Source: Escherichia coli (lineage in GTDB: Bacteria; Pseudomonadota; Gammaproteobacteria; Enterobacterales; Enterobacteriaceae). From it: a stretch of 64,000 nt of DNA. Each line of letters begins with the position of its first letter. The first letter of the stretch is position 1. The stretch lies in assembly GCF_041886205.1 (NCBI RefSeq), contig NZ_CP169029.1; one strand, written 5' to 3'. This document shows positions 6,360 to 19,577 of this stretch, one piece after another. Below the pieces are notes generated by a model. It worked only from the letters and a program-made list of their open reading frames with translations. It ran no database searches and was not told the origin of the DNA. The translations under genes were made by a program, and so were the position numbers.

Positions 6360-6560
6360 ACATGTAGAGTGCCTCTTACTGACCGTAAGGTCAAGGAGAA
6401 GAGAGCAATGAAGCAGCATAAGGCGATGATTGTCGCCCTGATCGTCATCTGTATCACCGCCGTAGTGGCGGCGCTGGTAACGAGAAAAGACCTCTGTGAG
6501 GTTCACATCCGAACTGGCCAGACGGAGGTTGCTGTTTTCACGGCTTACGAATCCGAGTAA
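6351..6560 (+). CDS. mokC: MokC, overlapping regulatory reading frame of hokC
   Basis: MLNTCRVPLTDRKVKEKRAMKQHKAM... within ORF 6318..6560; shares its stop with hokC. Confidence 0.85.
   Translation: MLNTCRVPLTDRKVKEKRAMKQHKAMIVALIVICITAVVAALVTRKDLCEVHIRTGQTEVAVFTAYESE
6408..6560 (+). CDS. hokC: HokC (Gef) small membrane toxin, type I TA
   Basis: 50-aa MKQHKAMIVALIVICITAVVAALVTRKDLCEVHIRTGQTEVAVFTAYESE. Confidence 0.92.
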   Translation: MKQHKAMIVALIVICITAVVAALVTRKDLCEVHIRTGQTEVAVFTAYESE

Positions 6561-6571
6561 GAGCAACGGCG

Positions 6572-6583
6572 GGGAGTGATCCC
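6572..6583. repeat. Target-site duplication flanking IS186 (left copy)
   Basis: gggagtgatccc immediately outside the left IS end; identical 12-mer at 7921..7932; joined flanks give GGGG-N6-CCCC. Confidence 0.75.
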
Positions 6584-7920
6584 ATAAGCGCTAACTTAAG
6601 GGTTGTGGTATTACGCCTGATATGATTTAACGTGCCGATGAATTACTCTCACGATAACTGGTCAGCAATTCTGGCCCATATTGGTAAGCCCGAAGAACTG
6701 GATACTTCGGCACGTAATGCCGGGGCTCTAACCCGCCGCCGCGAAATTCGTGATGCTGCAACTCTGCTACGTCTGGGGCTGGCTTACGGCCCCGGGGGGA
6801 TGTCATTACGTGAAGTCACTGCATGGGCTCAGCTCCATGACGTTGCAACATTATCTGACGTGGCTCTCCTGAAGCGGCTGCGGAATGCCGCCGACTGGTT
6901 TGGCATACTTGCCGCACAAACACTTGCTGTACGCGCCGCAGTTACGGGTTGTACAAGCGGAAAGAGATTGCGTCTTGTCGATGGAACAGCAATCAGTGCG
7001 CCCGGGGGCGGCAGCGCTGAATGGCGACTACATATGGGATATGATCCTCATACCTGTCAGTTCACTGATTTTGAGCTAACCGACAGCAGAGACGCTGAAC
7101 GGCTGGACCGATTTGCGCAAACGGCAGACGAGATACGCATTGCTGACCGGGGATTCGGTTCGCGTCCCGAATGTATCCGCTCACTTGCTTTTGGAGAAGC
7201 TGATTATATCGTCCGGGTTCACTGGCGAGGATTGCGCTGGTTAACTGCAGAAGGAATGCGCTTTGACATGATGGGTTTTCTGCGCGGGCTGGATTGCGGT
7301 AAGAACGGTGAAACCACTGTAATGATAGGCAATTCAGGTAATAAAAAAGCCGGAGCTCCCTTTCCGGCACGTCTCATTGCCGTATCACTTCCTCCCGAAA
7401 AAGCATTAATCAGTAAAACCCGACTGCTCAGCGAGAATCGTCGAAAAGGACGAGTAGTTCAGGCGGAAACGCTGGAAGCAGCGGGCCATGTGCTATTGCT
7501 AACATCATTACCGGAAGATGAATATTCAGCAGAGCAAGTGGCTGATTGTTACCGTCTGCGATGGCAAATTGAACTGGCTTTTAAGCGGCTCAAAAGTTTG
7601 CTGCACCTGGATGCTTTGCGTGCAAAGGAACCTGAACTCGCGAAAGCGTGGATATTTGCTAATCTACTCGCCGCATTTTTAATTGACGACATAATCCAGC
7701 CATCGCTGGATTTCCCCCCCAGAAGTGCCGGATCCGAAAAGAAGAACTAACTCGTTGTGGAGAATAACAAAAATGGTCATCTGGAGCTTACAGGTGGCCA
7801 TTCGTGGGACAGTATCCCTGACAGCCTACAAAACGCAATTGAAGAACGCGAGGCATCGTCTTAACGAGGCACCGAGGCGTCGCATTCTTCAGATGGTTCA
7901 ACCCTTAAGTTAGCGCTTAT
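6584..7920 (+). mobile_element. IS186 insertion sequence (IS4 family)
   Basis: Terminal inverted repeats ataagcgctaacttaagggttg (left) / caacccttaagttagcgcttat (right); about 1337 bp; encodes InsL; ends uncertain by 1-2 bp. Confidence 0.9.
6638..7750 (+). CDS. insL: IS186 transposase InsL
   Basis: ORF 6632..7750; MNYSHDNWSAILAHIGKPEELDTSARNAGALTRRREIRDAATLLRLG... about 370 aa. Confidence 0.93.
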   Translation: MNYSHDNWSAILAHIGKPEELDTSARNAGALTRRREIRDAATLLRLGLAYGPGGMSLREVTAWAQLHDVATLSDVALLKRLRNAADWFGILAAQTLAVRAAVTGCTSGKRLRLVDGTAISAPGGGSAEWRLHMGYDPHTCQFTDFELTDSRDAERLDRFAQTADEIRIADRGFGSRPECIRSLAFGEADYIVRVHWRGLRWLTAEGMRFDMMGFLRGLDCGKNGETTVMIGNSGNKKAGAPFPARLIAVSLPPEKALISKTRLLSENRRKGRVVQAETLEAAGHVLLLTSLPEDEYSAEQVADCYRLRWQIELAFKRLKSLLHLDALRAKEPELAKAWIFANLLAAFLIDDIIQPSLDFPPRSAGSEKKN

Positions 7921-16851: not shown

Positions 16852-17628
16852 ATGCTGATTCTTATTTCACCTGCGAAAACGCTTGATTACCAAAGCCTGT
16901 TGACCACCACGCGCTATACGCTGCCGGAGCTGTTAGACAATTCCCAGCAGTTGATCCATGAAGCGCGGAAACTGACGCCTCCGCAGATTAGCACGCTGAT
17001 GCGCATCAGCGACAAACTGGCGGGTATCAACGCCGCTCGCTTTCATGACTGGCAGCCAGATTTCACGCCGGAGAATGCTCGCCAGGCGATTCTGGCGTTT
17101 AAAGGTGATGTCTACACCGGCTTGCAGGCCGAAACCTTCAGCGAAGACGATTTCGATTTTGCCCAACAGCATTTGCGAATGCTTTCCGGCTTGTATGGCG
17201 TACTGCGCCCGCTCGATTTAATGCAGCCTTATCGTCTGGAAATGGGGATCCGTCTTGAGAATGCCCGAGGGAAAGATCTGTATCAATTCTGGGGAGATAT
17301 CATCACCAACAAGCTGAACGAGGCGCTCGCAGCACAAGGCGATAATGTGGTGATTAATCTGGCGTCAGATGAGTATTTTAAATCGGTGAAGCCGAAGAAA
17401 TTGAATGCCGAGATTATCAAGCCGGTGTTCCTCGATGAGAAGAACGGCAAATTTAAGATAATCAGCTTCTACGCTAAGAAAGCACGCGGTCTGATGAGTC
17501 GTTTTATTATTGAAAATCGGCTGACCAAACCAGAGCAACTGACTGGTTTTAATAGCGAAGGTTACTTCTTTGATGAAGCTTCCTCCAGCAATGGCGAACT
17601 GGTGTTTAAACGCTACGAGCAGCGTTAA
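16852..17628 (+). CDS. yaaA: Peroxide stress protein YaaA (DUF328)
   Basis: 258-aa [45 protein letters not shown]... Confidence 0.94.
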
Positions 17629-17640
17629 GTTTGCAGTCAA

Positions 17641-17765
17641 TGCCGGATGCGGCGTGAACGCCTTATCCGGCCTACAAAAGCATGCAGATTCAATATATTG
17701 CAGAATTCACGTAGGCCTGATAAGACGCGCCAGCGTCGCATCAGGCGCTGAATGCCGGATTGTTA
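17641..17765. repeat. REP (repetitive extragenic palindromic) cluster
   Basis: gccggatgcggcgtgaacgccttatccggcctac ... gtaggcctgataagacgcgccagcgtcgcatcaggcg in inverted arrangement. Confidence 0.8.
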
Positions 17766-17780
17766 CCCGGCATTTGTCAT

Positions 17781-18077
17781 TTAGCGGTGATGTTTGCCTG
17801 GACCATGACCGCCGTGATGATCATGATGAGCTTTCTTATGGTGACGCGGCGGTGGCGGCGGTCCGTGTGGGTGCCAGCGATTGCCTCGCCATTCATAATG
17901 TTGTTTCCACCAGCCGTGGTCGCGCCAGTGACCGCCATCCCAGTAATAACCGCGATTATCACGATCGCCTATCTGTAATTTTACTGACGGGACTAACGTA
18001 ATTTCCGCAGCCTGCGCTGCCATGGGAGCGACCAGAACCAGGGAAAGTGCGAGTACGATAGATTGCATCTTTTTCAC
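17781..18077 (-). CDS. yaaX: YaaX (DUF2502), secreted His/Pro-rich small protein
   Basis: 98-aa [57 protein letters not shown]...[28 protein letters not shown]. Confidence 0.88.
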
Positions 18078-18232
18078 AGGTTACTCCTTTTATCATTGCC
18101 CGTTATGGGTCGATATCCGGAGATTACGCGATGAGAACGGCGGTTGTTATTCTCCGCAATCCTAATCTCTAACTTACCGCATTTATTGAGAATTTCTCCT
18201 TTTTCCCTGTCGTTTCTCTCCATATTTTCTTC

Positions 18233-18268
18233 ACAAAAAAGCCGGGCTGCATAAAAGCAAACCCGGCC
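18233..18268 (-). terminator. thr operon intrinsic terminator after thrC
   Basis: Minus strand GCCGGGTTTGCTTTTATGCAGCCCGGC hairpin followed by TTTTTTGTG, 23 nt past the thrC stop. Confidence 0.75.
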
Positions 18269-18290
18269 TGATTGAGATAATGAATAGATG

Positions 18291-19577
18291 TTACTGATGA
18301 TTCATCATCAATTTACGCAACGCAGCAAAATCGGCGGGCAGATTATGTGAAAGCAAGGGTAAATCAGCACGTTCTGCCAGCTCTTTTGGCAGATCCAACG
18401 TTTCACCGAGAATCGCTTCCACGCTCTCTTTAAATTTCGCCGGATGCGCGGTGCCGAGGAACAAGCCATATTCGCCTGGATTCAACTGGTCACGCAGCGC
18501 ACGATACGCTACGGCAGCGTGCGGCTCCGAGGTGTAGCCCAGTTCTTTTAACTCACGCATTGTCTGTTGCGTGGTTTCATCATCCACGGCTGCATAACCC
18601 AGCTCTTTCAGTTGCCAGATTTTGCGGCGGAACAACTCTTCCACACGCGGCCAGTTGTTCGGCTGACTCACGTCCATCGCGTTGGATAACGTCGCCTGAG
18701 TCGCTTTGGGGGACCACTGACCGTCGTGCAGGAAACGTGGCACGGTATCGTTCACGTTGGTCGCAGCAATAAAACGTTTCACCGGCAGACCGAGTGACTT
18801 CGCCAGCAGACCCGCCGTCAAATCGCCGAAGTTTCCGCTTGGTACCGAAACAACCAGCTGGTTGCGCGCCTCCTGCGGCAGCTGCGCAACAGCTTCAAAG
18901 TAGTAGCAAATCTGCGCCAGCAAACGGCTGATGTTAATCGAGTTAGCTGAGTTTAACCCCAGCGCCACTTTCAGTTCTTCATCATCAAACGCCTGCTTCA
19001 CCAGCGCCTGACAGGCATCGAAATCGCCGTCGATGGCAACAGTTTCGATATTGCCGCCCAATGTACAGAACAGTTTTTCTTGCAGTGGACTGATTTTGCC
19101 TCGTGGATAGAGGATAACCACTTTCACATTCGGCAAACCGTAGAAAGCATGAGCCACTGCCGCTCCGGTATCACCGGAGGTCGCGGTCAGAATGGTCACT
19201 GGCTTATCACCCGCAATATGGGTCAGCATTTGTGCCATAAAGCGACCGCCGAAATCTTTAAATGCCAGCGTTGGCCCGTGGAACAATTCCAGACAACCGA
19301 CATCGCTTTCAACATTGGCGACCGGAGCCGGGAAGGCAAACGCCGCGCGCACGCGCTCTTCCAGGATTTCCTGCGGGATTTCATCACCAATAAACGCCGA
19401 GAGGATCTTCGCACTGCGGGTGACAAAATCCAGCTTCAGCATCTCATCAATTTCAGTCAGGCTGAATTCCGGCAGGTCATGCGGAAAAAACAGCCCCTGA
19501 TTTTTGCCCAACCCCTGGGTTACGGCTTGCGCAAAGCTGACCTGCTCGTTGTGATCTTTCAGATTGTAGAGTTTCAT
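18291..19577 (-). CDS. thrC: Threonine synthase
   Basis: 428-aa MKLYNLKDHNEQVSFAQAVTQGLGKNQGLFFPHDLPEFSLTEIDEML... Confidence 0.98.
   Translation of the reverse strand: MKLYNLKDHNEQVSFAQAVTQGLGKNQGLFFPHDLPEFSLTEIDEMLKLDFVTRSAKILSAFIGDEIPQEILEERVRAAFAFPAPVANVESDVGCLELFHGPTLAFKDFGGRFMAQMLTHIAGDKPVTILTATSGDTGAAVAHAFYGLPNVKVVILYPRGKISPLQEKLFCTLGGNIETVAIDGDFDACQALVKQAFDDEELKVALGLNSANSINISRLLAQICYYFEAVAQLPQEARNQLVVSVPSGNFGDLTAGLLAKSLGLPVKRFIAATNVNDTVPRFLHDGQWSPKATQATLSNAMDVSQPNNWPRVEELFRRKIWQLKELGYAAVDDETTQQTMRELKELGYTSEPHAAVAYRALRDQLNPGEYGLFLGTAHPAKFKESVEAILGETLDLPKELAERADLPLLSHNLPADFAALRKLMMNHQ

Follow-up and report, generated by a model that had tools for sequence, protein, structure and literature searches.

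The yaaX gene of Escherichia coli is a real, conserved and stress-regulated gene, and it encodes a small protein with an export signal. As modelled, this protein has two parts, a small folded core and a disordered tail. The core, and not the tail, is the selected part that defines the family. Since the core is the most conserved region, and not the histidine-rich tail, the essential activity of YaaX is probably located in the core. For the protein as a whole we offer a tentative reading: YaaX may act in the periplasm under stress, with the His/Asp tail as a reversible binder of divalent metals or protons.

The gene, its membership in the DUF2502 family and its regulation by Rcs are already on record. 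We add the division into domain and tail with quantified selection and the lack of a solved structural relative. We show that the family is small and describe the paralogy that leads from YpeC to YaaX. We also add the hypervariable tail with its in-frame slippage, the localised divergence between E. coli haplotypes, and a conserved block upstream of yaaX that has no canonical RcsB box. The question is thus narrowed. The conserved core is the functional unit to target, and the His-rich tail is better seen as a composition-driven appendage. Because the paralog ypeC exists, a double mutant is a more sensible test strain than a single one. If the role of YaaX and YpeC were known, it would be better understood how the damaged envelope of enterobacteria is repaired or buffered. 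This bears on how cells respond to beta-lactams, polymyxin, lysozyme and inhibitors of lipoprotein trafficking.

Identity and genomic context of yaaX

The window is the whole stretch of E. coli DNA analysed here, with a length of 64,000 nucleotides. It contains yaaX as an open reading frame of 297 nt (b0005 in E. coli), which is gene number 5 on the E. coli K-12 map. The product shows 100% identity to the annotated yaaX of E. coli genomes, where it also appears as a DUF2502 protein. Likewise, it matches Pfam PF10697 (DUF2502) with 52.3 bits (gathering cut-off 27, E = 6.7e-14), and residues 25-96 of YaaX cover positions 1-89 of the 90 in the profile. Both results agree with the sequence-only reading, which had named the gene from its letters. 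The same reading had placed yaaX directly after the thr operon. This is correct: thrC adjoins yaaX and the coordinates were right. The strand, which had been left unstated, is minus. The features of the region are listed in Table 1.

Table 1. Features of the yaaX region, in coordinates of the window.
Feature	Position	Strand	Description and basis
yaaA	16852-17628	plus	convergent to yaaX
REP/BIME cluster	17607-17772		between the convergent yaaX and yaaA; starts 9 nt past the yaaX stop
yaaX CDS	17781-18077	minus	98 codons plus stop, GTG start; ORF list and translation
Low-complexity tail	17784-17873	minus	residues 69-98, predicted disordered
PPPPP run	17847-17861	minus	residues 73-77, CCG CCG CCA CCG CCG
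DUF2502 core	17874-18008	minus	residues 24-68; invariant columns, dN/dS, pLDDT
Signal peptide	18009-18077	minus	residues 1-23, predicted cleavage after AQA; n/h/c regions and AXA rule
Shine-Dalgarno AAGGAG	18084-18089	minus	6 nt 5' of the yaaX GTG
5'-leader elements	18098-18128	minus	CGTAATCTCC (CUCC able to pair with the SD GGAG) and CCC-N5-GGG hairpin
Conserved non-coding block	18146-18199 (54 nt)	minus	GGAGAAATTCTCAATAAATGCGG, 8 variable nt, TTAGAGATTAGGATTGCGGAGAATAAC; 9-genus spacer alignment
Candidate -10 GAGAAT	18149-18154	minus	-35 poor and unconserved
thr terminator-like hairpin	18235-18270	minus	GGCCGGG...CCCGGC, then six T; read from sequence
thrC	18291-19577	minus	window gene order; yaaX is thrC-proximal

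The order thrABC-yaaX-yaaA-yaaJ-talB is also present in eight further genera or species (Enterobacter, Citrobacter, Salmonella, E. marmotae, Kosakonia, Buttiauxella, Yokenella and Phytobacter). In the window, yaaX lies in the thrC-yaaA interval, the placement that assigns a gene to the yaaX orthologous group and not to that of ypeC. The (A)AGGAG Shine-Dalgarno sequence (SD) is kept in 8 of 9 genera, and Yokenella has GGGCG. The GTG codon aligns with the ATG start of the orthologs. Other open frames that overlap yaaX were produced mechanically by the ORF list; they were ruled out by the dN/dS values, which confirm the annotated frame.

Could this frame be open by chance, or be a decaying remnant behind the thr operon? 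The tail tolerates many substitutions and indels, and several database entries are frameshifted within the proline-coding repeat, as such an origin would allow. Nevertheless, of 5426 complete E. coli genomes, 5424 have yaaX as a single copy. Nine genera share its synteny and frame, with dN/dS of 0.02-0.12 in the core when compared with eight other genera or species, wherever dS was measurable. The SD is conserved across genera, and a regulated mRNA and a ribosome pause have been reported. We consider this origin refuted, with a negligible probability. The sequence-only reading had made its case depend on a frame conserved in close relatives, and the core dN/dS values supply it.

A conserved core and a variable tail

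The N-terminus of YaaX reads as an MKK n-region, a hydrophobic stretch of 15 residues and an AQA site followed by alanine. No lipobox or twin-arginine motif is found in it. The pattern [VA][QH]A is common to the aligned orthologs at the cleavage position. The claim of a signal peptide is thus sound under the rules for Sec and signal peptidase I, and YaaX would be exported by Sec and cut by signal peptidase I after residue 23.

We computed the mature composition with a provisional cut after residue 24 (74 amino acids). It includes His (18.9%), Gly (14.9%), Pro (10.8%), Arg (9.5%) and Trp (8.1%). The GRAVY is -1.83 and the pI about 10. With a background of 2.3%, at least 14 His among 75 residues have a chance of 1.7e-9. 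YaaX has the highest His content among the window ORFs of at least 80 amino acids. The odd composition, rich in W, H, G and R with a PPPPP run, had been described correctly, and the C-terminal letters quoted for it were exact. However, the description of a His/Pro/Trp-rich tail stands only for His and Pro. All six Trp are within the core (residues 24-68), and the tail proper is rich in His, Pro, Gly, Lys and Arg. Low complexity was said to dominate the whole protein. It holds for the tail, but the part rich in W, R and G is a conserved and confidently modelled domain.

The core has a Trp/Arg/Asp/Gly character. An alignment of 24 sequences from many genera has 22 invariant columns in it, which include L34, Q35, I36, G37, D40, G43, W46, D47, G48, W51, R52, W57, Y61, W63, R64 and W68. 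The family motif (I/L)GDRDxxGxYWDGxxWRDxxWW is present after the N-terminal signal. We examined an AlphaFold model built on an alignment of 38 sequences. Its block-mean pLDDT is greater than 90 for mature residues 11-40 and 83 for mature residues 41-50. It predicts short strands, a helix at mature residues 30-36 and a hairpin at 37-46. A profile search of the PDB gave no solved structural relative, and fold searches were also without a match. DUF2502 was the sole match in Pfam; PADLOC gave none, and NCBIfam gave only sub-threshold matches to the signal peptide.

The selected core could have a function of its own. Being rich in Trp, Arg and Tyr, it might bind an envelope polymer (peptidoglycan glycan strands, LPS or phospholipid head groups, osmoregulated periplasmic glucans or colanic acid) by aromatic stacking and Arg contacts. 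YaaX would then reinforce or mark the damaged envelope, and the tail would be a solubilising or spacing appendage. Consistent with this, aromatic and charged residues take turns in the family stretch RDxRGYYWDGxxWRDxxWW, and some members have two copies of it in tandem, an arrangement frequent in binding repeats. Rcs senses defects in peptidoglycan, LPS and lipoprotein trafficking (PMC3599342, PMC5105897), and mature E. coli YaaX is strongly basic. However, the orthologs have a median charge of -1 in the core and also of -1 in the tail, which means that the net positive charge is not conserved. No similarity was detected to a known carbohydrate- or cell-wall-binding family or fold. We therefore regard polymer binding as unlikely, although worth keeping in view. 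A polycationic action, like that of antimicrobial peptides, was rejected as a property of the family; only the E. coli allele has the positive net charge.

A further reading takes the core as an unrecognised Trp/Arg mini-fold whose target is either a specific envelope component or the periplasmic domain of a sensor. In that case, YaaX and YpeC would be a dedicated output or feedback arm of Rcs, largely restricted to Enterobacterales, with hypervariable His/Asp tails tuned by lineage to the local metal or pH. This is very doubtful.

The tail differs from the core in its evolution. Its dN/dS is 0.14-0.62 in the same comparisons. The model gives a pLDDT below 50 for mature residues 57-74, and sequence and length are variable, as expected if the tail is disordered; on this point the earlier reading appears well founded. 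The E. coli tail has 11 His in 30 residues, which form 8 H-x(0-3)-H pairs. Pooled ortholog tails from 93 homologs include H (25.7%), D (16.5%), R (14.2%), P (10.3%) and G (9.2%). The median tail length among YaaX homologs is 30, with a median of 9 His and 6 Asp plus Glu. Cys or Met is present in only 2 of 111 tails, and His is among the last three residues in 109 of the 111. Conservation of the His-rich tail across Enterobacteriaceae had been proposed as a check. The composition is kept, but sequence and length are not, and they vary even within E. coli.

Two tail haplotypes are present in E. coli. The type of the window and of K-12 has an internal [H/P] position. The B2-type ends in [Y/H]GPPPSPRHNKHNDHRGDHRPGPDKHHR. 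Both types have the same core protein. The B2-type tail resembles those of other genera (...DHRPGPDxKHH), so the tail of the window and K-12 looks derived. The nucleotide divergence between both types is confined to positions 17781-17877 and the downstream spacer. Identity in the divergent segment is 44/60 and 40/60, compared with 57-60/60 in the flanks. Synonymous divergence is 0.65-0.80 in the tail against 0.09-0.13 in the core (Fisher p = 0.014), with few sites and an alignment made uncertain by indels. The REP/BIME cluster downstream is missing in EcN, MS7163 and HS-02, which are B2-type strains. In the window, this cluster has an Rfam match to ES036 above the cut-off (38.8 bits) and two to the REP-derived naRNA4 below the gathering score (47.2 and 44.7 bits). 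By megablast it matches hundreds of thousands of places across E. coli genomes.

The proline run, flanked by G and R, varies in the same way. Escherichia alleles have P4, P5, P6, P8 or PPPSP at this place. PPPSP is found in B2-type E. coli, and the run is absent in Enterobacter, Salmonella and Kosakonia. The run noted in the sequence-only reading is indeed there. However, it is not a feature of the family, being limited to Escherichia/Shigella and a few other lineages. As PPPPP is specific to an allele or lineage, it cannot be central to the function of the DUF2502 family, and we rejected it as the key functional feature, most genera being without it. In Escherichia/Shigella there are also in-frame length variants of 94, 98 and 102 amino acids, by gain or loss of DHR-type repeats. 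These variants and those of the proline run indicate that the tail evolves by slippage while its composition is kept.

The family is small. With clusters defined at 90% identity, a word-indexed search gave 158 of them, and the use of a profile gave 554. When 1.84 billion representatives were searched exhaustively with an HMM, only 117 clusters at the 50% level were obtained. The named members in Enterobacterales belong to Escherichia, Shigella, Citrobacter, Salmonella, Enterobacter, Leclercia, Lelliottia, Kosakonia, Kluyvera, Buttiauxella, Yokenella, Phytobacter, Pantoea, Serratia and Rouxiella. One member is present in the betaproteobacterium Jeongeupia. Distant members have one or two copies of the aromatic and charged stretch and then varied hydrophilic tails, often His-rich and sometimes rich in Q/G/P or R/E. 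In one database source, a Pantoea member is named "zinc ABC transporter substrate-binding protein". This name is probably a mis-annotation driven by composition.

E. coli has a paralog, YpeC (b2390). Its signal peptide and core are 60% identical to those of YaaX (41/68, E = 1e-30). Like YaaX, it has a hydrophilic low-complexity tail, which ends in GHGHRH. Nevertheless, the YpeC tail is rich in R/G/E/Y/W and that of YaaX in His/Pro. The loci also differ, the order being yfeO-ypeC-mntH for the paralog. In E. coli, as in Pantoea and Rouxiella, ypeC has mntH, a gene for a Mn transporter, as its neighbour. The homologs of the latter two genera occupy the ypeC locus, and all the YaaX-type genes examined are between thrC and yaaA. 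For this reason, YpeC looks like the older and wider form, and YaaX like an Enterobacteriaceae-level paralog that came from a YpeC-type gene.

Upstream region and stress response

The spacer between thrC and yaaX has 213 nt and starts with a GC hairpin and a T-run, also found at the equivalent place in several genera. We read this hairpin as the thr operon terminator; a simple terminator scan did not call it. The terminator-like hairpin and the conserved block of 54 nt stand between the thr operon and yaaX, so their adjacency is without functional meaning. A functional tie to threonine biosynthesis was rejected on the same grounds, together with the paralog located elsewhere.

The conserved block may contain one or more activator sites. 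A scan for sigma-70 consensus promoters found none on the yaaX strand, which would fit with an activator-dependent yaaX. The exact RcsB box TN(G/A)GAN4TC(T/C)NA (PMC7913699) is absent from positions 18078-18290. The only exact match of the window is inside yaaA, at chance level. Upstream of yaaX, GGAGAAATTCTCA contains both RcsB half-sites with a spacer of 3 nt rather than 4 nt, and there are isolated half-sites TTAGA and TAGGA. We list GGAGAAATTCTCA and TTAGAGATTAGGATT as candidate regulatory motifs. Published RcsB sites are degenerate, so the missing exact box lowers the case for direct control by RcsB but does not remove it. We tentatively infer direct control.

A weak marbox-like site was found at positions 18179-18193 with a PWM built from 32 published MarA sites. 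It scores 8.7 bits and ranks only 63rd in the window, against 16.9 bits for the ypeC marbox. Its orientation is that of the ypeC marbox, at a similar distance from the start codon, and 8 of 9 genera retain the site. On the other hand, yaaX is absent from the 33 MarA ChIP peaks, whereas ypeC is a validated direct target of MarA/SoxS. A promoter architecture common to both genes was considered and discarded: the local alignment scores 25 compared with 21.3 +/- 4.1 for shuffled sequences, and 97 of 500 shuffles are as good. In the leader, RNAalifold gives a consensus of 7 pairs. These pairs are invariant and so show neither compensatory changes nor covariation, and the z for the single sequence is -1.13. 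A leader structure that sequesters the SD is a weak candidate.

Previous works describe the expression of yaaX. It is in an RcsB regulon table with a 1.9-fold change (PMC2731931). Under colicin M it is induced together with other Rcs genes (log2 4.12; PMC3599342). With a LolCDE inhibitor it rises 8-12-fold and is annotated as "RpoS stress induced" (PMC5105897). These three records answer the doubt about expression that the sequence-only reading had raised against its own claim. The paralog shows larger changes: ypeC is 23.7-fold down in an O157 strain with disrupted rcsB and 42-60-fold up under the LolCDE inhibitor. In Serratia, the promoter of a DUF2502 homolog was picked as an Rcs reporter (PMC8470065).

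Among small periplasmic proteins, both paralogs belong to those with the strongest Rcs dependence. By analogy with CpxP-CpxA and ZraP-ZraS, YaaX and YpeC might adjust the response by binding a periplasmic part of the sensing machinery (RcsF, IgaA or another sensor kinase). The distribution of DUF2502, largely limited to Enterobacterales, the order with the Rcs system (PMC7913699), fits with this idea. The member in Jeongeupia does not. A specific interface would also not be expected to be hypervariable like the tail, although it could be provided by the core. We give a feedback role of this type a low probability and hold it improbable.

Other stress data could fit with a protective role. The genes osmB, osmE, otsB and spy are induced together with yaaX under the LolCDE inhibitor (PMC5105897), and a DUF2502 gene (yaaX or ypeC) is among the top induced after 4 weeks in soil at 4 C (PMC10667640). 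YaaX could be a hydrophilin- or chaperone-like protectant of envelope proteins or water under osmotic, cold or desiccation stress, with the role of Spy or LEA proteins and not their ancestry. The GRAVY and Gly content given above agree with the hydrophilin criteria, which are reportedly a Gly content above 6% and a high hydrophilicity (Garay-Arroyo et al. 2000). On the other hand, the core is confidently modelled as folded, so YaaX would not be purely disordered, and there is no homology to Spy, CpxP or ZraP. A protectant role is, in our estimation, quite unlikely.

Proposed role of YaaX and comparison with known systems

Our literature search found no functional study of YaaX, in agreement with the sequence-only reading, which had named no function for it. 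We propose the following mechanism. The gene would have its own activator-dependent promoter, 3' of the thr terminator, turned on by the Rcs phosphorelay and by stationary phase or other stress. The precursor of 98 amino acids would be exported by Sec and cut after AQA23. In the periplasm, the protein would consist of the folded Trp/Arg/Asp/Gly DUF2502 domain, a Pro-rich hinge and a disordered His/Asp/Arg/Gly tail. The tail would act by its composition, as a low-affinity reversible ligand for Zn2+, Ni2+, Cu2+ and Co2+ and as a pH-titratable charge patch. The core may anchor or target the tail to an envelope partner. In this way, YaaX could buffer the periplasm during envelope damage. In the E. 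coli allele, the PPPPP hinge pauses translation and presumably requires EF-P.

The metal or proton reading comes from three observations: the conservation of His and Asp without Cys or Met, the near-universal His at the C-terminal end, and the links to zraP and mntH. His and Asp without Cys or Met are the ligand set typical of borderline divalent cations. By composition, the tail also has the His cluster with Asp/Glu that characterises His-rich metal-binding proteins. As for the links, yaaX and zraP change together in cusS gain-of-function mutants in LB (PMC10920338), and ypeC adjoins mntH; both are weak and circumstantial. The main weakness of this reading is that selection acts on the core and not on the His-rich tail. 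Also against it, Pfam, NCBIfam and PDB profile searches gave no homology to a characterised metal-binding family or solved structure. The turnover of the tail and its in-frame length changes also fit with a weak constraint. Moreover, His-richness is not universal, given the R/G/E/Y-rich tail of YpeC and the Q/G/P-rich tails of some distant members. Metal binding by YaaX, already suggested in the sequence-only reading, is plausible from its residues, but the binding of metals or protons and any partner are speculative.

Among known systems, the C-termini of SlyD and HypB, Hpn and the His-rich loop of ZnuA are His-rich metal-binding segments. The likeness to YaaX consists of His clusters with Asp or Gly in a disordered segment, and it is one of composition only. 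There is no homology between them, and the YaaX tail is attached to an unrelated conserved domain.

The proline run recalls the EF-P-dependent polyproline proteins. YaaX has five consecutive prolines, in agreement with the stalling-type motif (at least three consecutive prolines, with an observed pause), and a proline-related ribosome pause in yaaX was reported by two methods (PMC13410324). By this analogy, translation of the E. coli allele presumably needs EF-P. The difference is that the run of YaaX is specific to some alleles or lineages.

OsmB, YmgD/YmgG, YaiY, Bdm and Ivy are further small envelope proteins induced by Rcs, and they are co-induced with yaaX in the same experiments. Like YaaX, they are either exported or located in the membrane, and they occur largely in enterobacteria. 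Their sequences are unrelated to YaaX, with no shared family. Only Ivy among them is known to have a defined activity, the inhibition of lysozyme.

Finally, ZraP, CpxP and Spy are all-helical proteins of the LTXXQ type. The YaaX model is unlike them, with short strands, one helix and a disordered tail. Homology to CpxP, Spy and ZraP was searched: a signal-peptide match to the Spy model was the only one obtained (12.8 bits against a cut-off of 174, E = 0.11), and there was no fold match. They belong to the Zra, Cpx and Bae regulons, and YaaX to that of Rcs. Nevertheless, like the predicted YaaX, they are small, Sec-exported, induced by envelope stress and abundant only under stress. ZraP binds zinc and couples metal binding with stress signalling, and it is this protein that co-varies with yaaX in one data set.

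Haplotype divergence at the yaaX 3' end

The window haplotype and the B2-type E. coli haplotype (EcN, MS7163, HS-02) differ sharply in two adjoining segments only. These are the yaaX tail (the final ~95 nt of the gene) and the spacer downstream. Identity in this divergent tail and spacer segment is 44/60 and 40/60, compared with 57-60/60 in the flanks. Likewise, dS between the two haplotypes is 0.09-0.13 in the yaaX core and 0.65-0.80 in the tail. Recombination, repeat slippage or an old polymorphism may be the source of this localised divergence. The gap between yaaX and the convergent yaaA is 152 nt in the window/K-12 haplotype and contains a REP/BIME cluster. This cluster is missing from the gap of EcN (59 nt), MS7163 (39 nt) and HS-02 (37 nt). 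Both naRNA4 matches in the cluster score below the gathering score, and the ES036 match scores above it.

Many database entries (P0009, P0016, P0017, P0021 and others) are shifted in frame at the CCG-repeat proline run. Their C-terminal end is a hydrophobic tail (15 residues quoted). The shifts probably arose from mistakes in sequencing or assembly of the CCG repeat; genuine slippage mutants may be found among these entries. A second open frame also runs across the His-rich tail region of yaaX.

Features of the yaaX region and of the ypeC loci compared (coordinates refer to the window unless a locus is named)
Feature	Position	Strand	Remark
RcsB box match TTAGACAATTCCCA	16933-16946	+	inside yaaA; consensus TN(G/A)GAN4TC(T/C)NA
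REP/BIME cluster	17607-17772		between yaaX and yaaA; 2 REP-derived naRNA4 matches and an ES036 match
Divergent spacer	17629-17780		
Second open frame	17777-17962	-	
Divergent yaaX tail	17781-17877		
Leader element CGTAATCTCC	18098-18128	-	conserved; candidate structure
Weak marbox-like 15-mer GCATTTATTGAGAAT	18179-18193	+	8.7 bits; inside conserved yaaX upstream block
MarA site GCACAGACAGATAAA	23143-23157	-	
Validated ypeC marbox GCATTTTTTGCTAAA	L001 5876-5890		
ypeC-mntH, E. coli	L001 6002-6328 with 6469-7001		
ypeC-mntH, Pantoea	L017 4001-6410		
ypeC-mntH, Rouxiella	L019 4001-5843		

The yaaX leader and the RcsB box

In the yaaX leader, CUCC within CGTAATCTCC is able to pair with the Shine-Dalgarno GGAG, spanning a small CCC/GGG hairpin. 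Covariation is absent from this pairing because every pair is invariant. The folding energy of the leader is ordinary (z=-1.13). The RcsB box match is the sole exact one across the window, a count no higher than chance would give (2.4 per window).

The ypeC neighbourhood and distant DUF2502 members

In E. coli, Pantoea and Rouxiella, the paralog ypeC neighbours mntH, which encodes an Nramp Mn transporter and lies on the opposite strand. The two are separated by a methyltransferase gene in Pantoea. This adjacency could be conserved synteny alone or a pointer to a metal link.

Some distant DUF2502 proteins share a CPPGQAKK(G/D)NC motif at the C-terminal end. Others carry two RGYYWDGxxWRD units in tandem, with HQGRxLGER-like linkers between them. 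The proteins with one or the other feature are P0188, P0207, P0258; P0173, P0178, P0180, P0192, P0218, P0222 and P0223.

One source labels the Pantoea stewartii family member P0269 'Zinc ABC transporter substrate-binding protein'. This name does not count as functional evidence. It was probably carried over through similarity of His-rich low-complexity composition.

MarA-type sites

GCACAGACAGATAAA agrees at every base with the thrL site for MarA binding that PMC5684230 reports (Table 1). Therefore, the published thr-leader MarA site falls within the window. The yaaX gene is not among the reported MarA ChIP targets. Compared with the validated ypeC marbox GCATTTTTTGCTAAA, the yaaX 15-mer GCATTTATTGAGAAT has an identical orientation and a similar distance to the start codon (101 nt in yaaX, 112 nt in ypeC).
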